DNA from: a virus
Direction: 5' to 3' (one strand)
Length of the DNA: 64,000 bases
IMG/VR virus record: IMGVR_UViG_3300036851_000321
Coordinates: 1-64,000 of that record
In this document: positions 5,542 to 32,718 of the stretch, piece after piece
How the letters are laid out: every line of letters begins with the position of its first letter
How positions within the stretch are numbered: the stretch's first letter is position 1
Translations under genes and position numbers: made by a program
The notes under the pieces: model-generated
What the model saw: only the letters and a program-made list of their open reading frames with translations
Database searches by the model: none
Told to the model about the DNA's origin: nothing

Positions 5542-5824
5542 ACTCGCCCACGATAGCGACCCTGACCGCCTCCGCCGGTCCAGTAACGGGCGGCGCCCCC
5601 AGCACCGCGTGGAACCTCCGCTTCCCGCCCGGCCCGCTCTCGTGGCTCCAAGCGTAAACGCGTGACGCCTTCGGGTGGCTAACCTCGAAGACCTGGACCT
5701 CGCCCTCCCAGACGATTTGGCCCTCGTGGGTCTCCTTCACCGGGACGGATTCAAGCCACGTCGCCTCCAGGCCGTGAAGGTGGCGGATAGCGTCTAGCAG
5801 GGCTGGAAGGCCGGCGGGGTCCAT
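5522..5824 (-). CDS. Small hypothetical protein at the IS right end
   Basis: SVPVKETHEGQIVWEGEVQVFEV.HPKASRVYAWS; recalled as a frequent companion of this IS1-like group (not verified). Confidence 0.7.
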   Translation of the reverse strand: MDPAGLPALLDAIRHLHGLEATWLESVPVKETHEGQIVWEGEVQVFEVSHPKASRVYAWSHESGPGGKRRFHAVLGAPPVTGPAEAVRVAIVGEFRRAQN

Positions 5825-5879
5825 GCGCTAGTCATAGTGACTAAAAACTCGCTGGTCACCGGGCACTGTCCTAGTTTCC

Positions 5880-5905
5880 TCAAATCCGGCCACTACCCGT
5901 CTCCC
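5880..5905 (-). repeat. Right TIR (5880-5897) and right TSD (5898-5905)
   Basis: Exact reverse complement of left TIR followed by CGTCTCCC. Confidence 0.92.
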
Positions 5906-5925
5906 GAGTGGAGTCGGGGTTTTTT
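5896..5925 (+). terminator. Rho-independent terminator that is also the IS target site
   Basis: CCCG.CTCC-CGAGT-GGAG.CGGG stem followed by T6 (5920-5925). Confidence 0.65.
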
Positions 5926-5980
5926 GTCGTTTGTGGTATGCTCAGCGCGTTGTCTGACAACGCCCGAGCCTCCGCGTCTC

Positions 5981-6169
5981 ATGTCGTTCAGCGAGCTCGT
6001 CGATCTGCCGCCAGCCGACCGCGTGAAGCATGAGCTGAAGATCCTCGATGGCCTGATGGCGCGCGCGGTGCAAGACAAGGACTGGACCGGTTCGCTCAAG
6101 ATCTTCGAGAGCGCCCACGAACTCCTTCGGCGTGCGCAGCCGGGATCAGGAAAGGTATCGATCCGATGA
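5981..6169 (+). CDS. Small hypothetical protein
   Basis: MSFSELVDLPPADRVKHELK...; ATGA overlap with ParB gene. Confidence 0.5.
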   Translation: MSFSELVDLPPADRVKHELKILDGLMARAVQDKDWTGSLKIFESAHELLRRAQPGSGKVSIR

Positions 6170-6711: not shown

Positions 6712-7814
6712 AGCTGAGTGTAGACATTCAGCGCACCCCTCGCGTCGCTCAGCTCGAGGGGATGTTCGATGTTCCAGAGGCGAAACGCCAGACCGTAAGT
6801 TTTCATTTCGATGCGCCTATTGACGAACGAGAGTGGCAAATCGGTCTGATTGTTGGACCATCTGGCGCGGGGAAGAGCTCGGTCGCTAGACATCTCTTTT
6901 CGGGATCCATTGTGAGCAAGTGCTCATGGGACGAATCACGTTCGCTTGTGGACTCTTTCCCGGGCGGCATGTCGATTCGCGAGGTGACGGCAGCCCTCAG
7001 CTCGGTCGGCTTCTCGAGTCCGCCGGCCTGGCTCAAGCCTTTTCACGTACTCTCCAACGGTGAGCAGTTCCGCGCGACTCTCGCCCGTGCACTAGTAGAC
7101 GATCGGCCCCTCGTGGTTGTCGATGAATTCACGAGCGTCGTGGATCGAACGGTGGCGCAGATCGGATCTGCGGCAGTGGCTAAGGCTGTGCGCCGCAAGG
7201 AAGGACGGCGGTTCGTCGCCGTCTCCTGTCATGACGACATCGTAGAGTGGCTGGGCCCCGATTGGATTTTAGAGCCTCACGTGGGCCGCTTCACGTGGAG
7301 GGAGCAAAGACAACGCCCGAAGCTCGAGCTGGAAATCCGCCGCGTCAACTATTCGTGCTGGTCTCTTTTCGCACCACATCACTATCTGACCGCCGAGTTG
7401 AATCGCTCCGCGGCATGCTTCGGCGCCTTCTGGCATGGACGAATTGTCGCATTCGACGCATGGCTGCCGTTCGTCGGCAGACTCAAGGACGACCGGAAGG
7501 CGCGGCGTGGGCATCGCACGGTTTGTCTGCCTGACTATCAGGGCGTAGGAATCGGCCGCGCCCTATTCGACACCGTCGCCAGCATGTGGTCCGGGCTCGG
7601 CTACAGAGCATTTTCGCGCACGGCGCACCCAGCAGAGATTGCGAGTCGCACCCGCGGCGGCAACTGGCGACTCACGGCTCACGGTTTTACCGCTCGCGAC
7701 ACTGGCGCGCAGAAGTCCCTGGCTAAGTCACGCACCGTGAATAGACGTGCGGCGTCGTTCGAGTGGGTCGGGCAACCAATGCCGAGAGATCAGGCAGAGG
7801 CGCTTGCGTCCTGA
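6693..7814 (+). CDS. ABC-type ATPase fused to GNAT (Mom-like) acyltransferase
   Basis: GPSGAGKS, LSNGEQFR, VVDEFTS, SCH; then FAPHHYL and acyl-CoA motif RTVCLPDYQGVGIG. Confidence 0.85.
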   Translation: MPRVDLELSVDIQRTPRVAQLEGMFDVPEAKRQTVSFHFDAPIDEREWQIGLIVGPSGAGKSSVARHLFSGSIVSKCSWDESRSLVDSFPGGMSIREVTAALSSVGFSSPPAWLKPFHVLSNGEQFRATLARALVDDRPLVVVDEFTSVVDRTVAQIGSAAVAKAVRRKEGRRFVAVSCHDDIVEWLGPDWILEPHVGRFTWREQRQRPKLELEIRRVNYSCWSLFAPHHYLTAELNRSAACFGAFWHGRIVAFDAWLPFVGRLKDDRKARRGHRTVCLPDYQGVGIGRALFDTVASMWSGLGYRAFSRTAHPAEIASRTRGGNWRLTAHGFTARDTGAQKSLAKSRTVNRRAASFEWVGQPMPRDQAEALAS

Positions 7815-7912
7815 GGAAGCGGCAAGATATTCGGGGGTGCAGCTGGTGGACTACGGCTCTCATCGAGGCCCAGGCGTTCTGCTCAGCTCCGGAGCCGGCA
7901 TCATGATGGCCA

Positions 7913-14722: not shown

Positions 14723-14992
14723 CTAGCCCTCCCCTTCCCGAAGCGCCCCCGCTGGCAAGCACTCCTTCACGTCGGCGCTGGCGTCTGCAAGCAGAGCCTT
14801 CCGCTTCGCCTCGTACTTCGCCTCGATCGATTGCGGCGTCGTCAGGAGCTCGGCGTCGGTGTCGCGGCGGAGCTGCTCGAGGCGTCGGGCGAGCTTCGCG
14901 GCGAGGGTGTACTTGTCGGGGGCGGAACGTTGTTTCGGGTCGGGCGTCGGAGTGGGGGTGGGTTTTGACATGGGGGTCCTTTCAGAACTCAC
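14723..14992 (-). CDS. Small hypothetical protein
   Basis: GTGA coupling to recombinase gene. Confidence 0.55.
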   Translation of the reverse strand: MSSERTPMSKPTPTPTPDPKQRSAPDKYTLAAKLARRLEQLRRDTDAELLTTPQSIEAKYEAKRKALLADASADVKECLPAGALREGEG

Positions 14993-15783
14993 GAGACGAC
15001 CTCAGAGCCATTCTTTGCGCGCAGCGCCGCCTCGAGTGAGGCCGGACTCCCTGGCGTGAGCCCAGCTGGCACGTGCGAAACGTCCTCGCCGTAGGTGTCG
15101 ATCACCTCGTCGCTCGTGTGCATTCCGAGTGAGAGCTCCGGCGAGTAGACGCGGGTCCAGAACGCGGCGGCCCGGTAGCAGAGCATCTGCTCGGGCATCG
15201 TCAGCCACTTCGAGCCGTTCTTCTTCGTCCAGCCCTCGGCGTCGGCGAGCCGCATCGTGATCAGGGTGCCAACGCACTCCTCGCCGGTTGCCCTGTCCTT
15301 GGCGACCGCGCGGCATCCCCAGTCCGCTTTCCCTTCCTCGCCCTGCCAGCGGAACCGGAGCGGCGTGAAGCGCCCGCTTGCGTTCACCGTGGCGATCAGG
15401 AACGTCGACCGCCAGCTCGGGCGCCCGTGGATGATGTCCAGGTTTTGGGCGACCATCAGAACCGAGCAGCCGATCCGGCTCGCGAGCTCGATTGCGATCA
15501 GGGTGTTCGGGATGTTGTTCTGGTAGGCCTGGGGCATCAGGCTGGACGACGCGAGCGCTTTGGCCATGCGCTGGGCCGTCGTGAACGCCTCACCGCTTGC
15601 GAAGGCCGAGATCGCTCGCCCGGGCTCCTGGGCTTCCGCGATGGCGAGCGCGGCCGGTGGCTCGACGGGTGCAGCCGGTGCCGGGTCCGCCGGAGTGACC
15701 ACCGGGAGCGGCGTCTGCTCGACGGGCGGCGCCGGATTCTCGGGGAGTTGTTGCTGTTCGGTCGTGGGTGTTCGGGGAGGCAT
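14989..15783 (-). CDS. RecT-like single-strand annealing protein
   Basis: AKALASSSLMPQAYQ..., IHGRPSW, KNGSKWLTMPEQMLCYRAAAFW..YSPE; adjacent to exonuclease. Confidence 0.75.
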   Translation of the reverse strand: MPPRTPTTEQQQLPENPAPPVEQTPLPVVTPADPAPAAPVEPPAALAIAEAQEPGRAISAFASGEAFTTAQRMAKALASSSLMPQAYQNNIPNTLIAIELASRIGCSVLMVAQNLDIIHGRPSWRSTFLIATVNASGRFTPLRFRWQGEEGKADWGCRAVAKDRATGEECVGTLITMRLADAEGWTKKNGSKWLTMPEQMLCYRAAAFWTRVYSPELSLGMHTSDEVIDTYGEDVSHVPAGLTPGSPASLEAALRAKNGSEVVS

Positions 15784-15794
15784 GTTCGGTCCTT

Positions 15795-16601
15795 TCAAGC
15801 GGCCCAAAATGGCACTTCGATCGTCTGGATTGTCTCGCTGTACCCGGGCCAGCGCCCGGTATTCATGCAGTGCGCCAGGGTGTCGATGTCACGCCGCGCC
15901 GCCTGGTACCCGCGCCCGATCCCCTCCGCGTCGAGCGTGAACGGGGCGAGCGCGTAGGGTGGCGACTTCTCGACGGCGAGCAGAACGAAGTGCTGGACCG
16001 GCATGTCGAGTGACAGGGCGGCGGAGCGGTAGAGAGCGTCCTGGACGTGGTAGTCGTACTTCGCAACGTCACGACGGAACTCGTCCCAACTCGCGTCCTC
16101 CGTGGTCTTCACGTCCACGATCATCGCAAGGGATTCGACGTAGTAGTCGAGTCGGCTCTTGCACGAGAGCCCGGTCTCCTCGTCCTTCCAGGCTAGCGTC
16201 AGCTCCGGCAGACCGTCGTGGATCATCTGCGAAGCGAGCGGGTGTGCCTTCACGGATTCAACCATCGCCGTGATGGTGAGCAGGTCGTCCATCGGCATCG
16301 CATCGAAGTCAGCGTGCGCGGCCAGCCATTCGGCCTTGGCGGCCTTCATGCCCTTGCCCGAGAACTTGGGAAGCTTGACGTAGGCAGACGCGAACTTCTC
16401 GGGCTCCAGGAGAGCCATGTGGAACGCGCGCCCAAACGCTCGGGCGGGCGTGTCCTTGTCGGGCGCCGTGCCGTCGATCCAGGCCTTGTAGTGGGCCGGC
16501 GAGCGACGGACGTGCTTCAGCGCCGAGTTGCTCACGACGCCAAGCTCTCGCCGGTGGTATTCGGTGGCTGGTAGCGCCTTGTGGATTCCGGTCTCGATCA
16601 A
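15795..16601 (-). CDS. RecE/exonuclease VIII-like PD-(D/E)XK nuclease (DUF3799-like)
   Basis: SNSALK...SPAHY, FGRAFH, E...CKSRLD, IVDVKTT, YHVQDALY, AVEK. Confidence 0.85.
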   Translation of the reverse strand: MIETGIHKALPATEYHRRELGVVSNSALKHVRRSPAHYKAWIDGTAPDKDTPARAFGRAFHMALLEPEKFASAYVKLPKFSGKGMKAAKAEWLAAHADFDAMPMDDLLTITAMVESVKAHPLASQMIHDGLPELTLAWKDEETGLSCKSRLDYYVESLAMIVDVKTTEDASWDEFRRDVAKYDYHVQDALYRSAALSLDMPVQHFVLLAVEKSPPYALAPFTLDAEGIGRGYQAARRDIDTLAHCMNTGRWPGYSETIQTIEVPFWAA

Positions 16602-16698
16602 CGTCGCCTCCCGTCCGCAACCCCGATGGCGGATGCGCACACGATCAGCAAATAGACAAGAGTCCACCAGGGATGAGCATCGATGTACGCGAACATGC

Positions 16699-16974
16699 TC
16701 ACTTGGCCGCCCTCCACCTCTCCACCAACCGCAAGAACCTCGCGAGCTTCTTCGGCTGGTTGTCTTGCGCGTAGTCGAAGGCCGCGTTGTGTGCGACACA
16801 CCGGCTGGCCTCGTCACACCGACAGAGGCTCGGCGGGACCTCCGCGTCGAATGCCATGGTCCGGTCGATCGCCCGCGCGATCTCGCCGTACTTCTCCGGC
16901 ATGTTGCGCAGGATGTACTCCTCGGCGGTCAGCTCGCGCCATCCGTCGTCGGTGAGTTTGGTGTGCTCGCTCAT
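16699..16974 (-). CDS. Hypothetical early protein
   Basis: GAGG RBS, 91 aa. Confidence 0.55.
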   Translation of the reverse strand: MSEHTKLTDDGWRELTAEEYILRNMPEKYGEIARAIDRTMAFDAEVPPSLCRCDEASRCVAHNAAFDYAQDNQPKKLARFLRLVERWRAAK

Positions 16975-24532: not shown

Positions 24533-24715
24533 GTGGTGTTGAAACTACCCGCCGACCTCACCTTCGCCGAGCTCCGGGAGATCGTCCGTGGCATCGTCCG
24601 TGAAGAGCGCGCAGCCGAGCGTAAGCTCCGGTCCGTGAAGGCACCGACGCGCAAGGCTTCGCCGAAGCGCGTCGCCCAGGTCCGCCGCTCACTTCGTCAG
24701 TTGGGGGTCGGATGA
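24533..24715 (+). CDS. Small basic protein preceding integrase (possible excisionase)
   Basis: ATGA overlap with int; ELREIVRGIVREE; position. Confidence 0.45.
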   Translation: MVLKLPADLTFAELREIVRGIVREERAAERKLRSVKAPTRKASPKRVAQVRRSLRQLGVG

Positions 24716-25989
24716 GGCGCCAGGCCGCCACCGTCGAAGAGCACCCGAGGGGATCGGGGCGGTTCCGCGTGCGAGCTCGCGTGAAGGGCAAGCGCCCGGT
24801 CATCGCGAGGGGCCTCGGTGAAGCAGAGGCGCACGAGATCGCTGATGCCTATCACGTGGTCCGCCACGAAACCGACCAGCAGGACCGGCTCACCCTGGCG
24901 GAGTTCGGTGAGAGCTTCCTGAAGCGCCGCGAACGATCCGGCGTCCGCGCTATCCGGACGGATCGGTCTCGCTGGAGCAAGCACATCGCGAAGGCACAGA
25001 TTGGTGAACTCCCGGTGGCTCAGCTCCACAGCCGCGATGTTTGGGGGTGGCTCGACGGCCTGACGGACCTCGCGTACCGCACCCAGCTCCGCCTCCTGAA
25101 CCTGCTCCGGGTGGCCCTCCAAGAAGCCGTCCGCCGGCGCGTGGCCGAGACCAACCCGGCCCGAGACGTGGAAATCCACAAGGCGGCTGCCGCTCGAGCG
25201 ACGGACGACCTGGAGGGCATCCTGAACCCCGCCGAGCAACAAGCTCTAGTTGCCGCCGTACCCGTCCGGGAGCGACCCACCGTCGTCTTTGCTCTCTGCA
25301 CCGGCCTCCGTCAGGCCGAGCAGTGGTGGCTCAAGTGGGAGGACGTGAAGCCCGACCGGGTGGTCGTCTCCCGCTCCGCCGATGGCCTGCCGACGAAGAG
25401 CGGGAAGCCTCGCCCGGTGCCCCTGCTGCCTCCAGCGCTCGCCGCCCTGGAGGCCCTCCCGCGGCGCTCCCCGTGGGTCTTCCCTGCCCTTCGCGGGTCA
25501 CGCCGAGCGAACGGCAAGCCGCCTCGCGGCTGGGCGAAGTGGGTCAAGGCGGCCGGTATCAAGCGCCCGATCCGCTGGCACGATCTCCGGCACACCTGCG
25601 CGACCTCGCTCCTAGCGGGTTGGTGGGGACGGAAGTGGTCGCTCGACGAAGTTTGCTCGCTGCTCGGACACTCGTCGGTGCAGGTGACGGAGCGGTACGC
25701 GCGGAAGCTAGACAGCACGCTGGAGGCCGCAGTCATTGGGACCACTGGTCCCACGGTCCCGACGCTGAAAGCGTCTAACCACTTGAGCCGACTGTCGGAT
25801 TTGAACCGACGACCTGTGCTTTACGAAAGCGCTGGAGAGGGGAAGGAAAACGCGAGGGTAGGTAAGCCGGTGGTCACACCCAGTGACCTCCATGACGACG
25901 CCGACTACTCCTTCGAGTGGGCCGCCACCCTAGCCGAACACCAAGAGCGGGCTGAGGCCTTCGCCGCCATCGGGGGAGGGTCGAGGTGA
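24712..25989 (+). CDS. int: Tyrosine integrase
   Basis: Catalytic set TGLRQAE, TKSGK, HDLRH, LGHS, ERYA. Confidence 0.93.
   Translation: MRRQAATVEEHPRGSGRFRVRARVKGKRPVIARGLGEAEAHEIADAYHVVRHETDQQDRLTLAEFGESFLKRRERSGVRAIRTDRSRWSKHIAKAQIGELPVAQLHSRDVWGWLDGLTDLAYRTQLRLLNLLRVALQEAVRRRVAETNPARDVEIHKAAAARATDDLEGILNPAEQQALVAAVPVRERPTVVFALCTGLRQAEQWWLKWEDVKPDRVVVSRSADGLPTKSGKPRPVPLLPPALAALEALPRRSPWVFPALRGSRRANGKPPRGWAKWVKAAGIKRPIRWHDLRHTCATSLLAGWWGRKWSLDEVCSLLGHSSVQVTERYARKLDSTLEAAVIGTTGPTVPTLKASNHLSRLSDLNRRPVLYESAGEGKENARVGKPVVTPSDLHDDADYSFEWAATLAEHQERAEAFAAIGGGSR
25785..25834 (-). other. attP: attP core: 3' half of tRNA-Thr(CGT) inside int
   Basis: Minus strand reads CAGCGCT-TTCGTAA-AGCAC-AGGTC-GTCGG-TTCAAAT-CCGAC-AGTCGGC-TC: anticodon arm, T arm, acceptor 3' strand; no D arm or 5' strand. 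Confidence 0.88.
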
Positions 25990-26729
25990 GCCAACTGGTC
26001 CTCTCCCTGTTCCCCGGCGCCGACCTGCTCGGGATGGCCTTTGAGCTCGAGGGCTTCTGCGTGGTCCAAGGTCCCGACGTTCAGTTCGGGCGGGACGTAA
26101 AGGACTTTCATCCGCCGGCGGGAAGGTTCGACGGGGTGATCGGGGGGCCGCCCTGCCAGGCGTTCTCGCAGCTTCGGACCCAGCACCCAGGGCGCGCGCC
26201 GGCGTGGAACGGGATCCCCGAGTTCGAGCGTGTCGTCGCGGAGGCGCGCCCGGACTGGTTCGTCATGGAGAACGTCCGACAGGCGCCGCTACCAGTGGTC
26301 ACCGGCTACGCGACGACCGCCGCACTCTTTCAGAATCGCTGGCTCGGTGAGGAGCAGAGCCGTCTCAGACGCTTCACGCTCGGAGCTCGCGGCGCCAGTA
26401 CCCCCCCCTCGCTCTACTCGGCACTGACGCACGACTTCGTCGTCTTCGAGAACGTCGACAAGGCCGGGTGCTTCACGGCGAACGGTTCACAGTGGGAGCC
26501 CGGCATCGACAACGGCAACCGAAAGGGTCGCTCCCGCTCCGTCCGTACCGACGCCGAATTCCGCCGCGGGTGCCGGCTCCAGGGCTTGCCCGAGACGTTC
26601 CTGGAAGACGCACCGTTCACCGTCGAAGGCAAGATCCGCCTCGTCGGCAACGCTGTGCCTTTGCCCATGGGTCGGGCCGTTGCCCGGGCGGTGAAGCGGT
26701 GTCTTGGCCTGGAAACGGAGGCCGCATGA
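25986..26729 (+). CDS. C5 cytosine DNA methyltransferase
   Basis: LSLFPG, GGPPCQ, MENV, QSRLR, RLQGLP, VGNAVP. Confidence 0.92.
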   Translation: MSQLVLSLFPGADLLGMAFELEGFCVVQGPDVQFGRDVKDFHPPAGRFDGVIGGPPCQAFSQLRTQHPGRAPAWNGIPEFERVVAEARPDWFVMENVRQAPLPVVTGYATTAALFQNRWLGEEQSRLRRFTLGARGASTPPSLYSALTHDFVVFENVDKAGCFTANGSQWEPGIDNGNRKGRSRSVRTDAEFRRGCRLQGLPETFLEDAPFTVEGKIRLVGNAVPLPMGRAVARAVKRCLGLETEAA

Positions 26730-27244
26730 CGCAGCACGCGCTCTTTCTCGACCCGTCGGAGCCGTCGTGCGCGCTCTCTGCGTGCGGACGTTACCGCTAC
26801 ACGCTGCGCATTCCGCTCACCGCCGATCGTCGCGGGGTCTGCCTGTTCGTGATGGCCAATCCGAGCACCGCGATCGTCACGGACGGCGTCTTTGCGTCCG
26901 ACCCGACCGTCACGCGCTGCATGAACTTCGCGCGACGCTGGGGCTGCGGGACGCTCATCGTGGAGAACGTGCGGGCGTGGCGGGAAACGGACCCGGACAA
27001 GGTGCCGCCTGACCCGTTGGCAATCGGACCGGAGAACGACGCGCGGATCCGGCGCTCTGCCAAGGAGGCCGACATCGTGGTTTGCGGTTGGGGAAAGCTC
27101 GGTGGTGAGCGAGGCCGCGCAGTCCTCCGAATGCTCGCCGAAGTGTGCGCGCCGACGGCGCTGAAGCTCAACGGCGATGGGAGCCCTGCGCACCCGCTCT
27201 ACCTCGCGGCTGACCTCAAGCCGTTCCCGATGGGGGCCGCATGA
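26726..27244 (+). CDS. DUF1643-family protein
   Basis: YRYTL, MANPSTA, DPTVTRC, GPEND, GWG, PAHPLY. Confidence 0.88.
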   Translation: MTQHALFLDPSEPSCALSACGRYRYTLRIPLTADRRGVCLFVMANPSTAIVTDGVFASDPTVTRCMNFARRWGCGTLIVENVRAWRETDPDKVPPDPLAIGPENDARIRRSAKEADIVVCGWGKLGGERGRAVLRMLAEVCAPTALKLNGDGSPAHPLYLAADLKPFPMGAA

Positions 27245-27492
27245 GCGCCAAGGTCATCCCGATTTCGGACCGCGTCGCCCGCCTCCTTTCCCCACCCACC
27301 GGTGGCGTCCGCTTCGAAGCCGTCGTGGGCGGCGGCATCTGCTTCACCTGGCGGAACGATGACGGGGAGGTCGACCTCTACTTCGGGATCGATGAGGCGG
27401 CGGGGCTTGCGCGGCAGCTTGCCGACGCAATCGACCTCGCGGCGGAGTTGGTGAGGGCGGAGCGGGAGGAGAGGGGCGGGTGTGAGACGTGA
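27241..27492 (+). CDS. Small hypothetical protein whose 3' end (27433-27492) is a recoded copy of 28699-28752
   Basis: ATGA/GTGA coupling; DLAAELVRAERE matches DLATELLKAERE downstream of tnpB. Confidence 0.75.
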   Translation: MSAKVIPISDRVARLLSPPTGGVRFEAVVGGGICFTWRNDDGEVDLYFGIDEAAGLARQLADAIDLAAELVRAEREERGGCET

Positions 27493-28667
27493 CCAGGAGC
27501 CAGTCCCTGTGCCGCGCCATGCGATTCCGCGTCTACCCGACGGTGCATCAGGAGCGCCGACTTTTGGCATGGGAGTCGGCGCTGCGCTTCGTCTGGAATC
27601 TGGCGAACGAACAAAGGCTGATGGGCCTCGCTGGGCCATGGGGCGAGCGCGTCTTTCCGTCTGAGTTCTCTCAATCGCGCGAGGCGACCGAACTCCGCGC
27701 TGTGCTGCCATGGCTTTCGGACCTTCCGCGCGAGTCGATAACGTTTGTTCTGCGCCGGCTCCACGACGCCTGGCGTCGCTGTTTCTCACGCGTCAGCAAG
27801 CGCCCAGGCTTCAAGGTGAAGAGGCGCGACGTTGTGAGCATCGGGCTCAACCACCGGTACTGCCGCATTGAAGGCCAGACGGTGAAGCTGCCGAAGCTCG
27901 GCCCGTTGCGCATCGTCGCCCACCGCCCGCTGGTTGGGAAGTCGCGCGCGGTCTCTCTCGTTCGCGAAGGCGACCAGTGGTTCGCGGTGTTCGTTCGTGA
28001 GATAGAGGCGCCGAAGCCCGCTCGCCTCCCCGGCGCTGTCGCCCTCGACCGCGGCATCGTCTCCCTGGTCACCGACTCCGACAGCAAGACGATCGAAGGC
28101 CCCCGCTTCGCCGAGCGCTCCGCTCGCAAGCTGAAGCGGGCACAGCGCGCTCTCGCGCGCACCAAGAAAGGTTCTAGCAACCGAGCGAAGGCTCGGGAGC
28201 GACTGGCGCTGGTCCACCGAACGGTGAGGCGCCAGCGGGCATGGCTCCAGCATCAGATCAGTCACGACTACGCCAATAGCCACGGCACGGTCGTCATTGA
28301 GAAGCTGGAGACCGCCCGGATGACCCGAAGCGCCAAGGGTTCCGTCGATGCACCCGGACGGAACGTCAAGGCGAAGGCCGGCTTGAACCGAAGCATTCTC
28401 GACGCCGGATGGTCCGGCCTTGCGGAAAAGCTCCGGTACAAGCTGGAAGAGCGAGGTGGCGAGCTCGTCGAAGTTCCGGCCGCCTACAGCTCGCAAACGT
28501 GCTCCGCGTGTGGCGTCGTTGACGCTGCCTCGCGCCGCACACAATCCGCGTTCTGCTGTGTTGCTTGCGGGCACCAGGAGAACGCGGACACGAACGCTGC
28601 GCGGGTGATTCTCAGCCGGTGGAACCCACCGGTTCAGCCTGTGGAGGCATGCGATGGCGCGGCCTGA
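27489..28667 (+). CDS. tnpB: TnpB RNA-guided endonuclease (IS200/IS605 type), RuvC triad intact
   Basis: FRVYPT, RFVWN, RuvC ALDRG / VIEKL / NADTNAA, zinc ribbon SQTCSACG...CVACG. Confidence 0.95.
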   Translation: MTRSQSLCRAMRFRVYPTVHQERRLLAWESALRFVWNLANEQRLMGLAGPWGERVFPSEFSQSREATELRAVLPWLSDLPRESITFVLRRLHDAWRRCFSRVSKRPGFKVKRRDVVSIGLNHRYCRIEGQTVKLPKLGPLRIVAHRPLVGKSRAVSLVREGDQWFAVFVREIEAPKPARLPGAVALDRGIVSLVTDSDSKTIEGPRFAERSARKLKRAQRALARTKKGSSNRAKARERLALVHRTVRRQRAWLQHQISHDYANSHGTVVIEKLETARMTRSAKGSVDAPGRNVKAKAGLNRSILDAGWSGLAEKLRYKLEERGGELVEVPAAYSSQTCSACGVVDAASRRTQSAFCCVACGHQENADTNAARVILSRWNPPVQPVEACDGAA

Positions 28668-28718
28668 GAAGCAGGAAGCGGAGCGATCTGCGGGTTACGA
28701 CCTGGCAACGGAGCTCTT
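28614..28718 (+). ncRNA. Predicted omegaRNA (scaffold about 28614-28698, guide from 28699); 5' end uncertain
   Basis: Hairpin CCGGTGG/CCACCGG, GCCTGTGGAG...GAAGCAGGAA motif, pseudoknot AACCC(28623)/GGGTT(28692), terminal TTAC. Confidence 0.72.
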
Positions 28719-28752
28719 AAAGGCCGAGCGCGAGGGGGGCGAAGGGAAATGA
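28699..28752 (+). pseudogene. Orphan 3' end of the 27241 gene, at the omegaRNA guide position
   Basis: DLATELLKAEREGGEGK-stop; its TGA overlaps the next ATG (ATGA 28749-28752). Confidence 0.75.
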
Positions 28753-29177
28753 GCGACCTTGTCGTAACCGTTCCGAAGCCGATCTGGCTAGACTGGATCT
28801 ACGAGGGCGATGCCGCGGGCGAGCCGGCCACCGGAGAGGAGTGGGGCTTCTTCCTCGGTGGAGCACGCCCCGCCGCGCTTCCAGGCGACCGACTTTACAT
28901 CGTGGCTCACGGCCTGCTCCGTGGCTACGCACCGATCACGCGTATCGCACGCACGGAGCGCGGCTGGGCAATCTGCCGGAACCACGGCGCCCAAGCGGTA
29001 ACGATTGCGGGCGAGATCCACGGCTTCCGCGGGTGGCGAAAGCGCTGGTGGGACCGGGCGCAAGAGATCCCCTTCCCCGATTGGAAGATCGCGGGGGTGA
29101 AACCGCAATCGCGCGAGGACCAGTACACGCTCGACCGGCTATTTCGAGAGGCCGTTTCGTTGCCGGGGGCGGAATAG
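28749..29177 (+). CDS. Phage protein, possibly PUA/ASCH-like
   Basis: Trp-rich; PGDRLYIVAHGLLRGYAP...GFRGWR. Confidence 0.6.
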   Translation: MSDLVVTVPKPIWLDWIYEGDAAGEPATGEEWGFFLGGARPAALPGDRLYIVAHGLLRGYAPITRIARTERGWAICRNHGAQAVTIAGEIHGFRGWRKRWWDRAQEIPFPDWKIAGVKPQSREDQYTLDRLFREAVSLPGAE

Positions 29178-29584
29178 TGAGCGCCCCCATCCGCTTCCAG
29201 CTCTCCCGTCGCAAGGGCTACCGCAAGCCAGAGGGTGGCGTCGTGTGTACGCGTGCGAGCCGATGGGGCAACCCGCACAAGGTAGCGGACGTGTTTCTCG
29301 AGATGCTTCGCGCGATTCCAGAGAGCGAGCGACCGAAGTATCGAAGCATTGACCACGGGAATCTGCTTCTTGAGGCCACGCGCGCCGCGATCAATCGATT
29401 CAGCGCCGACCTCTACGCCGGCAAACTCCGGGTGACCGTTGATGACGTGAGGCGTGAATTACGGGGAAAGTCGCTCGGCTGTTTTTGCGCGCTCCCGGCC
29501 GAGGGACAGTTGGACTTGTGCCACGCGGCGATCCTACTTGAAATCAGCAACCAGGAGGACGACGGCGGTGCCGAAGAAGCTTGA
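29177..29584 (+). CDS. DUF4326-family protein
   Basis: RFQLSRRKG, RASRWGNP, LRGKSLGCFC, CHAAILL. Confidence 0.85.
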   Translation: MSAPIRFQLSRRKGYRKPEGGVVCTRASRWGNPHKVADVFLEMLRAIPESERPKYRSIDHGNLLLEATRAAINRFSADLYAGKLRVTVDDVRRELRGKSLGCFCALPAEGQLDLCHAAILLEISNQEDDGGAEEA

Positions 29585-30194
29585 GCTATCTGGCATGTCA
29601 TTCGGCAGGCTCTCTGTCATCTCTGAATCTGGCCGTGACAAGCACGGAGCCACGCTGTGGGCTTGTCGCTGCGCTTGTGGTGCCACGTCCGTTGTGCGTG
29701 GCGCAACCCTGGCAAGCGGTCGCGCTCGGTCTTGCGGGTGTGGTGTTCTGGAAGCAGCCCGGCTTCCAAAGAAGCATGGCGCAACCAAGTCAGCGCTCTA
29801 CCGCCGTTGGCAAGCAATGAAGGCCAGGTGCGGCAACGAAAAAGGCTCCGAGTTCCACAACTACGGCGGACGTGGGATAACTGTGTGTCCGCGCTGGCTG
29901 CATTCGTTCGAGAACTTTGCTGCCGACATGGTGGCTGAGTTCTCAGAAGACCTGGAACTCGATCGCGTCGACGTGAACGGCAACTACGAGCCGGGCAACT
30001 GTCGCTGGGCGACCCGCAAAGTTCAACAGCGAAACAAGCGCGACAACCACTTCGTCACAATTGGAGCCAAGACCCAGACCGTTCAGGATTGGGCTGAACA
30101 ACTAGGGATCAAGCCCAATACCATTGTGACCAGGTTGCGCCGCGGGTGGGACGTTGCTGATGCATTGAAGGTCGCGAACGGAGGCGAGCCATGA
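29568..30194 (+). CDS. Second HNH-type homing endonuclease-like protein
   Basis: FGRLSV, CACG, SCGC, YGGRGITVC, LDRVDVNGNYEPGNCRWAT. Confidence 0.82.
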   Translation: MPKKLELSGMSFGRLSVISESGRDKHGATLWACRCACGATSVVRGATLASGRARSCGCGVLEAARLPKKHGATKSALYRRWQAMKARCGNEKGSEFHNYGGRGITVCPRWLHSFENFAADMVAEFSEDLELDRVDVNGNYEPGNCRWATRKVQQRNKRDNHFVTIGAKTQTVQDWAEQLGIKPNTIVTRLRRGWDVADALKVANGGEP

Positions 30195-30340
30195 CCACCC
30201 TGACCCGCCTCCGCATCGCCCCCTACTTCCTCGCCGGCCACACCTTCCGCGGTTGCGCCCGAAAGTACCGGTGCACCGTCAGGCAGGCCGAGGAAGCTGT
30301 CCGCGTTACGTCGCGGGAGATGCGCGGGAGGAAGCGGTGA
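30191..30340 (+). CDS. 49-aa HTH micro-protein resembling the DUF433 helical half
   Basis: MTTLTRLRIAPYFLAGHTFRGCARKYRCTVRQAEEAVR...; coupled at both ends. Confidence 0.5.
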   Translation: MTTLTRLRIAPYFLAGHTFRGCARKYRCTVRQAEEAVRVTSREMRGRKR

Positions 30341-30651
30341 GCGAAACCGAGATCTCCCTCAACATCCGCCGAGCCCTGAAGCTGGCCGGCTTCTGGTGCG
30401 AGCGTGTGAACAGCGGGAAGGTGCCGACGCGGGGCGGGTTCTTCCAAGGGGCAAGCAAGGGCACGCCCGACACCGTCGTCGTCTCCCCGGTGTACGGCTG
30501 GCTCGAGACCAAAACGCCCGAGGGGAAGCTCAGCGACGGGCAGCGCAAGTGGCACGCGAAGGCAAAAGCCCGTTGCGTTCGCATCGCCGTCGTCATGAGC
30601 GCGTCAGAGGCGATCGCGGTGGTTAGGGGATGGCGGAGGGAGGCCACATGA
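30337..30651 (+). CDS. VRR-NUC domain nuclease
   Basis: SETEI, GTPD, WLETK, LSDGQ..W. Confidence 0.8.
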   Translation: MSETEISLNIRRALKLAGFWCERVNSGKVPTRGGFFQGASKGTPDTVVVSPVYGWLETKTPEGKLSDGQRKWHAKAKARCVRIAVVMSASEAIAVVRGWRREAT

Positions 30652-30860
30652 GTGAGCTTCGTCGCAGCGTCGGCGCACTCGTGCTCTTCCACGGGGCGAC
30701 GATCGAGCGCGCGCTCAGGTTCTCCGCTTCACAGATGGAGCTTGCCGAGCGCTCGGAGGCAACTGATCCGGAGCTCCGTGACGCAGCGGGGGAACAGCTA
30801 GCCAAGATCGACGCTGCACTCGAGGCGTTCCTGGCGCTCGGGAAGGAGCTGCAGAAGTGA
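30648..30860 (+). CDS. Small hypothetical protein
   Basis: GGAGG RBS; coupled. Confidence 0.5.
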   Translation: MSELRRSVGALVLFHGATIERALRFSASQMELAERSEATDPELRDAAGEQLAKIDAALEAFLALGKELQK

Positions 30861-31654
30861 TGGCTGAGGGTAGCTTGCGGGCGGTGGTGGAGGGGGAGGC
30901 AACGTGGGCGATCGTGCATGGGGATTGTCGCGAAGTGCTCGCCACGCTCCCGGATCGCTCCGTCGACCACGTGATTACGGATCCGCCGTACGACGAGCAC
31001 ACCCAGGCAAACATCTCGTCCGGTACCGCGTTCAAGCGGCAGCTCGACGGGTTCACGTCAGGCTCCGGGATCCCACGCGTCGACCTTGGGTTTGCCCCGC
31101 TTGAATCGTGCGACTTCGCCCGGGACCTCGTCCGCGTTTCTCGCCGCTGGACCATCTGCTTTTCCAGCATCGAGAACATCGGCGCCTACCGCGACGCCGT
31201 TGGCTCCGAGCACTGGGTGCGCGGTGGAGTTTGGTACAAGCCGAACTCGATGGGTCAGCTCACGGCGGACAGGCCGGCGAGCGCATGTGAGTTCCTGGCC
31301 ATCATGCACGCCGCGGGTGAGAAGCGGTGGAACGGGAAGGGCTCATATGCGCACTGGGTGTTCAACGGGACCCGCGGAGAACTCGAGCGTCACCCCTGCC
31401 AAAAGCCGCTCGATCTGATGCTGCGCCTCGTCGAGCAGTTCACCGATCCGGGTGACGTGATCCTGGACGCGTTTTGCGGGTCCGCCGCAACCGGGATCGC
31501 CGCGCTCAGGCTCGGGCGTCGGTTCATCGGCATCGAGTGTGATCCGCCATGGGTCGAGCTCGCGCGTGACAGGTTGATCGCGGAGACCGAGAACTCAACG
31601 GTTGCGGCACGAAGAGCAGGGCAGGTCGCGCTCTTCTCGGAGGTCCCCCAGTGA
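30857..31654 (+). CDS. N6-adenine/N4-cytosine DNA methyltransferase (beta class)
   Basis: GDC, ITDPPY, HPCQKP, ILDAFCGS. Confidence 0.92.
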   Translation: MMAEGSLRAVVEGEATWAIVHGDCREVLATLPDRSVDHVITDPPYDEHTQANISSGTAFKRQLDGFTSGSGIPRVDLGFAPLESCDFARDLVRVSRRWTICFSSIENIGAYRDAVGSEHWVRGGVWYKPNSMGQLTADRPASACEFLAIMHAAGEKRWNGKGSYAHWVFNGTRGELERHPCQKPLDLMLRLVEQFTDPGDVILDAFCGSAATGIAALRLGRRFIGIECDPPWVELARDRLIAETENSTVAARRAGQVALFSEVPQ

Positions 31655-32718
31655 GCGCGCAACTCCTCGCCCCGTACCCCTACTTCGGAGGCAAGCGCGA
31701 CGTCGCGCCCATGATCTGGTCTCGCCTCGGACGCCCGAAGCACTACATCGAACCGTTCTGCGGGTCCGCTGCCGTTCTTCTTGCGGCACCCGAGCCCGCT
31801 TCGCTTGAGGTCATCGGCGACATGAACGGCTTCATCGCGAATTTCTGGCGCTCGGTTGTTCACCAGGCCGCCGAGGTCGCGAAGTGGGCTGACTACCCGG
31901 TCTCGCATGTGGACCTCGGTGCGCGTCACGGGTGGCTGATGGAGCAGCGTGGCGCCATCGAAGCGGGCCTACAAGATCCGAACTGGCCGGGTGACGCGAA
32001 GGTCGCCGGTTGGTGGCTCTGGGGTCAATGCTGCTGGATTGGCTCTGGGTGGTGTGATTGGGACAAGGGCGAGCGGCGCTCGAAGTGGGACCAGCGACCG
32101 CACATCACGACTCCAGGCATGGGAGTTCAAGCGAGTCAGCGACGCCGGGAGGGGGATTCAGGCGACCGGGCAGGTGCCGACGTCACCTCCGCCGGGATGG
32201 GCATTCAAGCCGCCGGCAAGGTGCCACACGTCAGCGACGCCGGGAGGGGGATTCAGGCGACCGGGCAGGTGCCGCACGTCGGCAACGCCGATCCTAGCTT
32301 CTGGACCTCCTCCGGAGCCGTCGCACATCGCTGGCTCGGAATCTTGGCGACTCGCCTCGAGCGCGTCCGCGTTGTGCACGGCGAGTGGTCACGGTGCCTC
32401 AACAACCATTACGGCGCTGAGCGGACCGCAATCTACTTCGACCCGCCGTACGAGAGCTTCGAAGGCATCTACGGCGTCAAGAACAGCGTCGCCCAAGACG
32501 TCGCCGATTGGTGCCGAGAGCACGCCGATCTCGCGATTGCGCTGTCCGGCCACGTTGGCGACTACGACCTTCCTGGATGGGACGCTGTCCAATGGGAGCG
32601 CTCCGGTAACACCTACTCGGGCAGCGGCACGAAGGACCAGGAGATGATTTGGTTTGCTCCCGCGTGTCTGCCAGCGACGCCGCCAGCTCAGCGGTCGCTT
32701 TTCCAGGAGGTCTCCTGA
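31651..32718 (+). CDS. Dam-like (D12 class) DNA adenine methyltransferase with internal 16-aa repeats
   Basis: PYFGGK, YIEPFCGSAAV, YFDPPY. Confidence 0.88.
   Translation: MSAQLLAPYPYFGGKRDVAPMIWSRLGRPKHYIEPFCGSAAVLLAAPEPASLEVIGDMNGFIANFWRSVVHQAAEVAKWADYPVSHVDLGARHGWLMEQRGAIEAGLQDPNWPGDAKVAGWWLWGQCCWIGSGWCDWDKGERRSKWDQRPHITTPGMGVQASQRRREGDSGDRAGADVTSAGMGIQAAGKVPHVSDAGRGIQATGQVPHVGNADPSFWTSSGAVAHRWLGILATRLERVRVVHGEWSRCLNNHYGAERTAIYFDPPYESFEGIYGVKNSVAQDVADWCREHADLAIALSGHVGDYDLPGWDAVQWERSGNTYSGSGTKDQEMIWFAPACLPATPPAQRSLFQEVS

Follow-up and report, generated by a model that had tools for sequence, protein, structure and literature searches.

A transposase-less tnpB cassette between a phage gene and its displaced end: a candidate RNA-guided homing element with a substitute gene tail

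Why should the end of a phage gene occur twice, once in use and once stranded behind a gene for the RNA-guided nuclease TnpB, and could such an arrangement allow the nuclease gene to spread? We addressed this question in the first 64 kb (64,000 nt; hereafter, the window) of the 82.5-kb IMG/VR virus record IMGVR_UViG_3300036851_000321, which has 65% G+C and is estimated to be 82% complete. Here, tnpB and an omegaRNA-like scaffold lie between an orphan gene, denoted X, and its downstream neighbor, denoted Y, and the parts follow one another as gene core, substitute C-terminus, endonuclease and native C-terminal remnant. The reading we favor is an RNA-guided homing cassette that lacks a transposase, carries a gene tail and is, or recently was, active, and we consider it about evenly poised between right and wrong. 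The layout suggests, and does not prove, a homing gene drive between related phages; the anatomy is solid, yet it comes from a single locus without a target allele.

The components of the locus are the following:

27241-27492, plus strand: gene X, whole, an orphan open reading frame (ORF) of 83 codons
27241-27432, plus strand: X core, codons 1-64 according to the ORF call, upstream of the junction
27433-27492, plus strand: resident (in-use) X tail, 19 codons and TGA, DLAAELVRAEREERGGCET and stop, aligning with the tail that is conserved in the X family
27489-28667, plus strand: tnpB, 392 aa from GTG, with an alternative start at the ATG of codon 11 (27519)
28540-28698, plus strand: 3' part of an omegaRNA-like scaffold that overlaps the tnpB 3' end and terminates in GGGTTAC
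28678-28691, plus strand: terminal hairpin GCGGA-GCGA-TCTGC, just ahead of GGGTTAC
28699-28752, plus strand: displaced X tail (the remnant), 17 codons and TGA, DLATELLKAEREGGEGK and stop, with the TGA overlapping the start of Y
28749-29177, plus strand: gene Y, its start kept in relatives

The end of X reads GAC CTC GCG GCG GAG TTG GTG AGG GCG GAG CGG GAG ... ACG TGA, and its TGA overlaps the GTG at 27489 that opens the tnpB frame. After GGGTTAC (28692-28698), the DNA continues GAC CTG GCA ACG GAG CTC TTA AAG GCC GAG CGC GAG GGG GGC GAA GGG AAA TGA, in frame with the X tail from the first base past the scaffold, and this second TGA (28750-28752) overlaps the ATG of Y. All these elements, that is, X, tnpB, the scaffold end, the second, diverged X tail and the overlapping stops and starts, had been pointed out in a preliminary description of the locus and are confirmed on the sequence. 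So is the degree of similarity, which was re-derived codon by codon: over their first 12 codons, the two tails share 26 of 36 nucleotides (72%) and 9 of 12 amino acids. The differences are distributed 3/1/6 over codon positions 1/2/3, five codons differing synonymously and three by conservative changes, although the third-position excess is weak (P = 0.045). The interval 27433-28698 measures 1266 nt, or 422 codons, so that its removal would be in frame; of the earlier proposal that deleting this interval rebuilds one intact gene coupled to its neighbor, it is this in-frame removal that stands, as a matter of arithmetic only.

We then asked how readily such a resemblance could arise by chance. 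None of 19,339 random 36-mers from the window reaches 26/36 anywhere in X (maximum, 25). The best ungapped alignment of the 54-nt remnant with a segment of X scores 18 and starts exactly at remnant nucleotide 1 and at position 27433; among random 54-mers, none of the 3,482 drawn from the gene-dense plus strand attained this score, and 2 of the 3,871 drawn from the window as a whole did. Coarser alignments did not yield significance: 8 of 300 mononucleotide shuffles equalled a gapped local alignment of the nucleotides, and 116 of 200 shuffles equalled a translated one over 9 frame pairs, the latter test being weak owing to the Ala/Arg/Gly-rich frames at high G+C and the large search space. Thus, the significance of the tail homology derives from the nucleotide match taken together with the exact position of the junction. 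A chance resemblance or an assembly artefact could draw on the non-significant protein-level and coarse nucleotide tests and on a high G+C content that inflates chance matches, but it would have to account for the position-specific controls and for a match that begins at base 1 past the scaffold, keeps the frame and falls on the tail that the X family conserves. It would also have to account for the 6,384-bp contig of a second assembler, which covers 25781-30500 with zero differences, although this contig probably derives from the same reads and so is not an independent sample. We find this explanation barely credible. We take the tail homology to be real: it combines a strong nucleotide match with an exact junction start, an in-frame position and a location on the conserved X-family tail.

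The importance of this tail became apparent from the X family. X and Y belong to no Pfam or PHROG family. X has no relative in IMG/VR or among the INPHARED phages, and a search by shared words among 5.8 billion proteins returned only X itself. In a full HMMER scan with X, P0124 (79 aa, E 2e-8) was the single true relative, and the remaining matches were giant repetitive proteins; a profile built from X, P0124 and the remnant then added eight more. The family thus comprises nine relatives of 76-88 aa that are 37-47% identical and reachable only by profile. P0124 has no match in IMG/VR, and the X family none in the GTDB genomes. The family tail follows the pattern ...LADA[IL]-[DE]-[LM]-A-x-[EG]-F-[LVA]-[KR]-E..., in which A67 is invariant and L60 and D62 are nearly so, and both tails in the window fit it. 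A cut at codon 64 would thus deprive X of conserved residues, and, with the tail conserved in the family, an insertion at this point would need a substitute tail. When the first ten tail residues are compared with the family tails, identity is 20-60% for the remnant and 20-50% for the resident tail, whereas these two are 70% identical to each other; with ranges of 20-60% and 20-50%, the relatives appear too distant to tell which of the two tails in the window is foreign. The base composition gave no sign of a foreign origin of the remnant either, its G+C content at third codon positions being 0.76, compared to 0.77 for reference genes of the window.

Judged by its sequence, the nuclease looks like an intact TnpB. 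Although the JGI annotation starts tnpB at the ATG of codon 11 (27519; P0134, 382 aa), we favor the upstream GTG because residues R9-A10 are conserved. The protein contains the HTH_OrfB_IS605, OrfB_IS605 (RuvC) and Cas12f1-like TNB zinc ribbon domains, with Pfam matches all above the cut-off (PF01385, 72.7 bits; PF07282, 74.2 bits; PF12323, 27.2 bits), and matches the ISDra2 TnpB structures 8bf8 and 8h1j over its full length (E ~5e-23). In an alignment of 13 sequences (the tnpB product and 12 relatives of 65-85% identity), D187, E271, D367, C338, C341, C357 and C360 are invariant, and the D/E/D residues occupy the columns that we take to be catalytic in ISDra2 TnpB. The RuvC triad is thus intact, as first reported, and, judged by its residues, the nuclease looks catalytically competent. 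Compared to ISDra2, about 15 extra residues follow the RuvC glutamate (TnpB ~270-304; 28296-28400), with the sequence …TARMTRSAKGSVDAPGRNVKAKAGLN…; this feature is clade-wide, and the TARMTRSAKGSVDAPGRNVKAKAGLN stretch is also present in the 540-aa 'Transposase' of PDB 9j09.

Next to the stop of tnpB, 31 nt separate 28667 from the end of the scaffold at 28698. This end was delimited by comparison with other loci. A metagenome scan gave 7 tnpB loci, among which the contigs of the TnpB relatives P0003, P0004 and P0005 do not occur; L008, L009 and L010 represent a single element in a single context, with a TnpB 70% identical to that of the window, and L014 is 83% identical over the portion present. 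The similarity of the window to L008/L009/L010 and to L014 stops right past GGTTAC, and the flanks beyond are unrelated, so that the break in conservation is seen in three independent contexts (window, L009 and L014); in more distant TnpB relatives, the right end is GTTTAC. The stem of the terminal hairpin is kept in L009 and L014 with altered bases and loops. A consensus fold of the scaffold from the three close sequences contains 48 pairs, 6 of them with compensatory changes, and the single-sequence fold has a minimum free energy (MFE) z-score of -2.17; the scaffold matched no Rfam family and no intron-like RNA family. Both the stop of conservation and the covarying pairs bear out the placement of the scaffold end at 28698 in the preliminary description. 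Given that all studied IS605 TnpBs take their guide from the DNA directly past this end, the displaced X tail would, by analogy, be the guide template of the omegaRNA:

28699-28718, plus strand: presumed guide template, the first 20 nt past the scaffold, positioned by analogy with studied TnpBs

This 20-nt guide differs from the resident tail at six positions (6, 9, 10, 16, 18 and 19, which agrees with the positions originally listed), and its only match in the window at up to 3 mismatches is its own template.

Could the cassette simply be an insertion sequence that was moved by its transposase? The entire 82.5-kb record contains 0 matches to the Y1 transposase TnpA (PF01797), control genomes having been matched in the same way, which upholds the initial observation that no tnpA is present, and it contains no second tnpB. 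A conserved left end of the kind that TnpA requires is absent: ahead of the tnpB start, ACGTGA is all that the window has in common with L009, and in P0003, P0004 and P0005, whose TnpBs are 82-85% identical to that of the window, the N-terminal residues are unrelated up to the conserved R-A-x-R-F-R at codon 9. The distant relatives L011 and L012 do have a common leader upstream of tnpB. No tnpA, one tnpB copy and no conserved left end make canonical TnpA-driven movement unlikely, and we reject a canonical insertion sequence with TnpA in cis, no tnpA having been found in the record, which is estimated to be 82% complete. The operon-embedded position, the single copy and the missing transposon left end would equally suit a domesticated TnpB that does not cut or is directed at the host, for example, one that binds or regulates the X-Y operon or a host site through its RNA guide, the duplicated tail being incidental; phage TldR proteins offer a precedent for domesticated TnpB relatives (10.1101/2023.11.30.569447). 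We nevertheless consider this explanation quite improbable, because the RuvC triad and the zinc finger are intact and invariant, unlike in TldR, and because, within the window, the guide has no match other than its own template. The RuvC domain of TldR proteins is inactive, and a TldR-like repressor as such is ruled out by the intact D/E/D triad.

The TnpB clade occurs in at least three flank contexts (window, L009 and L014), and in L009 the stop of the upstream gene likewise overlaps the GTG of tnpB. At the locus in the window, overlapping stops and starts run all along X, tnpB, a small frame that bridges the scaffold, and Y:

28654-28752, plus strand: bridge ORF, 32 codons, from an ATG 11 nt ahead of the tnpB stop, through the scaffold and into the remnant in frame, ending on the ATGA of Y

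A comparable frame of 42 codons passes through the scaffold of L014 (458-586) and likewise ends on ATGA, and in L009 (7145-7864) a comparable frame continues into the downstream gene, which lacks a start of its own nearby. Such a frame is thus found in 3 of 3 contexts, with a chance of ~1/3 for each, or ~1 in 27 overall, which is a hint, no more, that the element is made to preserve translational coupling through the cassette. The interval 26400-29600 yielded no promoter-like site and, from the scaffold to Y, no terminator-like site; two terminator-like sites both lie inside tnpB, with either strand considered, and are no more numerous than in shuffled sequence.

At L009, a 6-nt repeat, CGCCAC, is present on both sides (CGACCT in the window), with weak similarity off the junction. 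There, tnpB may split one gene, with an 81-aa coiled-coil ORF (5747-5992) upstream and a Cys-rich ORF (7193-7864) downstream: the upstream ORF ends ...QMGAT+SKGDGT and stop, and the downstream one resumes ATVPACDAC... in a frame opened inside the element. Neither half of this putative split gene belongs to a PHROG family, and the gene downstream of the L009 cassette has no match in INPHARED or IMG/VR. A translated survey of flank duplications covering the tnpB loci of the window, L009, L012 and six further phage loci from GenBank was too insensitive to be informative, the window's own duplication being equalled by 116 of 200 shuffles; within that survey, L018 was equalled by 5 and L020 by 3 of 200.

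How might such a cassette propagate? The tnpB/omegaRNA cassette lies in frame between codons 64 and 65 of X, which stays whole by virtue of the substitute tail (27433-27492) between its core and tnpB, and the original tail (28699-28752) would have been displaced behind the scaffold, to the guide-template position. The operon transcript would then provide TnpB and an omegaRNA with the old tail as its guide. In a cell that also contains a cassette-free related phage or prophage, TnpB would be expected to cut the X tail of that genome beside a transposon-associated motif (TAM), and the break could be repaired from the cassette-bearing genome, either by the phage RecT/exonuclease pair or by the host, with the substitute tail, tnpB, the scaffold and the remnant all being copied in the process. 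The additional parts that this sequence of events would call upon are the following:

27427-27432, plus strand: GCAATC, candidate TAM position, proposed only because an allele without the cassette would have these bases immediately ahead of the guide match
14989-15807, minus strand: RecT-like annealing protein
15795-16817, minus strand: exonuclease VIII-like protein, the end of its gene overlapping the RecT-like gene

The last two were recognized through PHROGs (561 and 412, RecT-like and exonuclease VIII-like), in line with the earlier mention of RecET-like genes aboard; the Pfam RecT match, at 15 bits, falls under the cut-off, and there is no Pfam YqaJ match. We propose that the carrier is spared because its remnant is preceded by the scaffold instead of a TAM, the bases there being GGTTAC, unlike the candidate GCAATC, and because its in-use tail has mismatches at 6 of the 20 guide positions, three of them in the TAM-proximal half.

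The same anatomy would serve a weapon, in which TnpB and its guide cut the X tail of competing phages or prophages and destroy them without any copying of the cassette. An endonuclease encoded in an intron of PhiPA3 is reported to act in this manner (PMC11620839), and homing endonucleases are described as killing competitors whose sequences are too divergent for conversion (PMC13565253). However, the flanking homology of the X core, the remnant and Y, along with the RecT/exonuclease genes, would favor repair from the carrier, and no target has been found; we judge a pure weapon to be improbable. Returning to the homing cassette, a more specific version of it would be a natural 'home-and-rescue' phage gene drive, TnpA-independent, with a guide-resistant substitute tail, the native tail kept as the guide template, and spread between co-infecting relatives by recombinational repair. 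We put this version forward tentatively, as a possibility that falls short of an even balance. The divergence between the tails looks more like that of a diverged allele carried along than like selected escape, as far as the nucleotide differences tell. The original claim that the carrier is self-immune through recoding was an over-reading: the divergence continues past the guide length, with an indel and unlike endings, and the third-position excess is weak, as given above.

Several results weigh against a homing cassette. Neither a cassette-free allele nor any other match to the guide was found in IMG/VR, the INPHARED phages, the 5.8 billion proteins (by words), GTDB or the window. Within IMG/VR, neither the exact 20-nt guide nor a degenerate 36-nt pattern covering both tails had a match. 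The preliminary description had anticipated relatives without tnpB that match the guide better than the resident copy does; no such relative surfaced in any collection searched. None of the nine X relatives is a plausible target, given that their tails are at most 60% identical to the remnant. Among public runs, the locus is present in a single DNA run (X1, a soil metagenome and probably the source sample) and in no listed RNA run; in X1, no joint across the cassette was found, but this run is kept as contigs, which cannot show rare forms. Past the guide-length stretch, the tails diverge through a one-codon indel and unlike endings, so that recoding for immunity need not be invoked. The remnant contains a TTA leucine codon (28717-28719), a codon that seven reference genes of the window use for none of their 178 leucines, which hints that the remnant is drifting freely, that is, neutrally; a drifting template means a drifting guide, moving away from its targets. 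The independent context of L009 has no duplicated gene end, and the translated alignment of the two tails in the window is not significant. Finally, because the tails are each other's nearest relatives (70% identity, as opposed to at most 60% with the family), duplication in place followed by drift is possible. The sequence itself establishes the anatomy, the right end, intact catalytic residues and the lack of both tnpA and a conserved left end, whereas guide use, the TAM, cleavage, homing and the origin of the duplication are inferred.

These observations bring to the fore a different history, namely, a fossil scar left by a one-time entry, be it through transposition or through illegitimate or unequal recombination of two phages, with tnpB persisting as an idle passenger or kept for some other purpose and the guide lacking a live target. 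The failure to find a target allele anywhere searched fits this history, as do the otherwise avoided TTA codon in the remnant and the mutual proximity of the two tails, which is as expected after duplication in place; moreover, mosaic joints beside nuclease genes are reported to be common in phages (PMC10448857). A scar would not, however, explain why tnpB and the scaffold are intact within a clade that is conserved and has covarying RNA pairs, nor why the remnant is in frame and starts exactly at the scaffold end; the lean of the tail changes toward synonymous ones is not predicted by a dead copy alone; and TnpBs 83-86% identical are found on two further contigs, which by their lengths also carry X, with a core only 44% identical to that of the window. 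On balance, we regard the fossil scar as somewhat unlikely.

The latter contigs merit closer consideration with respect to the homing cassette. The X relative P0137 and the TnpB P0004 (83%) are both on 71,136-bp contigs, and P0141 and the TnpB P0003 (85%) are both on 70,033-bp contigs. X and a TnpB of the clade thus appear to co-occur on two other phage-sized contigs, as indicated by matching sizes. The contigs of P0124 (61,228 bp) and P0142 (101,147 bp) match in length none among the 120 TnpB contigs listed and may represent cassette-free relatives. The TnpB identities among the window, P0003 and P0004 are star-like (83, 85 and 86%), whereas the X core of the window is 44% identical to the cores of P0137 and P0141, which are 69% identical to each other. 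By these identities, the mismatch between TnpB and X core is compatible with tnpB having moved horizontally between phages that carry X, although differences in rate or ordinary mosaicism could also account for it. In P0137, the core groups with P0124/P0135/P0136 (83-86%), and the tail with P0138/P0139/P0141 (80-90% compared to 40-60%), a weak hint of tail exchange where the junction falls in the window; this comparison involves ten residues only, and retention of an ancestral tail would explain it as well.

Searches with the remaining parts of the locus provided no empty site. In IMG/VR, Y has five relatives that share its N-terminus; their upstream genes are unrelated and include no X, so that they are not empty sites, and Y has no match in INPHARED. 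The TnpB clade has no member in the GTDB genomes, and in IMG/VR there is only a relative of 28% identity. TnpB is found in 544 records of INPHARED phages and 1,699 records of plasmids, always less than 60% identical to that of the window, which makes these TnpBs useless for defining the ends of the element or its TAM. Y belongs to a mostly viral family, and its predicted fold is near the PUA, ASCH and EVE domains (TM 0.54-0.55), with a cluster named DUF3850; this is a lead only.

The wider neighborhood on the plus strand runs, in order, integrase, C5 methylase, DUF1643 protein, X, tnpB, Y, HNH endonuclease, N6/N4 and D12 methylases, DnaB-type helicase and single-stranded DNA-binding protein (SSB). 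The genes closest to the locus are the following:

24712-25989, plus strand: tyrosine integrase
25986-26729, plus strand: C5 DNA methylase
26468-27244, plus strand: DUF1643 protein gene
29454-30194, plus strand: HNH endonuclease (PHROG 374, E 1e-68)
30857-31654, plus strand: N6/N4 DNA methylase
31651-32718, plus strand: D12-class DNA methylase

Three DNA methyltransferase genes (C5, N6/N4 and D12), together with the DUF1643 gene, flank the X-tnpB-Y locus, and the HNH endonuclease gene lies ~280 nt past Y, placing two mobile-type nuclease genes inside 3 kb. In run X1, many contigs start or stop at 25781-25831, with continuations unlike one another. In the same run, the bin 28673-28839 (scaffold end, remnant and start of Y) is the only one with a rise in summed contig depth, from 46.9 to 56.5, pointing to some further contig of at least 80% likeness there.

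Phage TnpBs are common (see the INPHARED records above), and TnpB homing and the carry-over of C-termini by homing endonucleases are already known. What would be new here is that several features are combined: an RNA-guided nuclease brings along a spare gene end, the displaced end would serve as the guide template, there is no transposase, and the whole is embedded in a phage operon; no published TnpB cassette with a substitute gene end was found in the literature searched. To our knowledge, how stand-alone tnpB copies persist and spread is unsettled. Many tnpB genes do stand alone without a transposase, as in the IS1341 group (PMC13565253). The home-and-rescue version, if correct, would show one route of propagation for such TnpBs in the absence of TnpA. 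The displaced end would be kept because it would have a job as guide template. If the interpretation holds, the locus would also be an RNA-guided counterpart of the mobile-ORF hybrids of mitochondria, connecting RNA-guided nucleases with a long-standing puzzle of mitochondria, namely, C-terminal duplications carried by endonucleases. In any case, it is a concrete, small and testable natural design by which a gene is interrupted without harm through a spare end.

Among the closest known systems is the homing of IS200/IS605 TnpBs. In the accounts of their guide mechanism, the guide is the DNA past the right end of the element, and element-free copies are cut and repaired from an element-bearing copy (PMC13565253; 10.1101/2023.03.14.532601). 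The plasmid experiments of PMC11870625 demonstrate TnpB-driven, TnpA-independent spread, whereas spread into co-infecting phages is presented as theoretical only where a 2026 review takes up the matter (PMC13565253). The cassette in the window resembles these elements in that its guide would come from right-flank DNA and that cutting of element-free copies followed by repair would copy the element. It differs from them in having no tnpA, no conserved left end and a single copy, in being translationally embedded in a phage operon, and in supplying the interrupted gene with a substitute end.

The intronless homing of free-standing endonuclease genes in T-even phages supplies a second comparison. 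In the passages of the review devoted to SegF, SegB and Mob, flanking markers are co-converted, and self is told from non-self by differences in a nearby conserved gene (PMC13565253). As in those systems, the nuclease gene here is wedged between conserved phage genes and would cut a relative that lacks it; unlike in those systems, recognition would be through an RNA guide and a TAM, and the T-even cases, in the same passages, are described without a duplicated gene end. A further parallel is found in IStrons, which the sources that cover them define as IS605/IS607 elements fused to group I introns (PMC10690162; PMC13565253). These, too, are TnpB elements that spare the gene they interrupt, but in the window the gene is mended at the DNA level by a spare tail, not by splicing of the message. 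The locus also resembles two kinds of agents that target a needed gene and carry a replacement for the part they disrupt. The first are the engineered 'cleave and rescue' and 'home and rescue' drives, synthetic Cas9 constructs in insects that carry a diverged, resistant replacement; the second are prophages that bring a replacement 3' gene end, such as phage 21 and e14 in icd and those with tRNA attP sites, which use site-specific recombinases. The cassette differs from the former, which are synthetic and rely on Cas9, and from the latter, which depend on a recombinase and have no guided nuclease.

The order of parts is matched most closely by the mobile ORF (mORF) hybrids of fungal mitochondria, exemplified by atp6 of Allomyces macrogynus and by atp6, atp9, cox2 and nad3 of Glomus. 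In the sections of the report that describe them, these hybrids consist of a native gene core, an in-phase foreign C-terminus, an endonuclease ORF and a native C-terminal remnant; the inserted and native ends are 64-81% identical at the nucleotide level, and the carry-over is ascribed to endonuclease-driven transfer (PMC3630166). The arrangement in the window has the same part order, and its tails, at 72% identity, fall within the range given there. The nuclease is RNA-guided here, in contrast to the protein-only, DNA-recognizing enzymes of mORFs, and the genome is that of a phage, not of an organelle. The remnant, moreover, lies at the guide-template site, so it would be a working part rather than debris. 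The locus thus appears to work like the mORF family without being a member of it, because its endonuclease is a TnpB in a phage and not a LAGLIDADG or GIY-YIG enzyme in an organelle genome.

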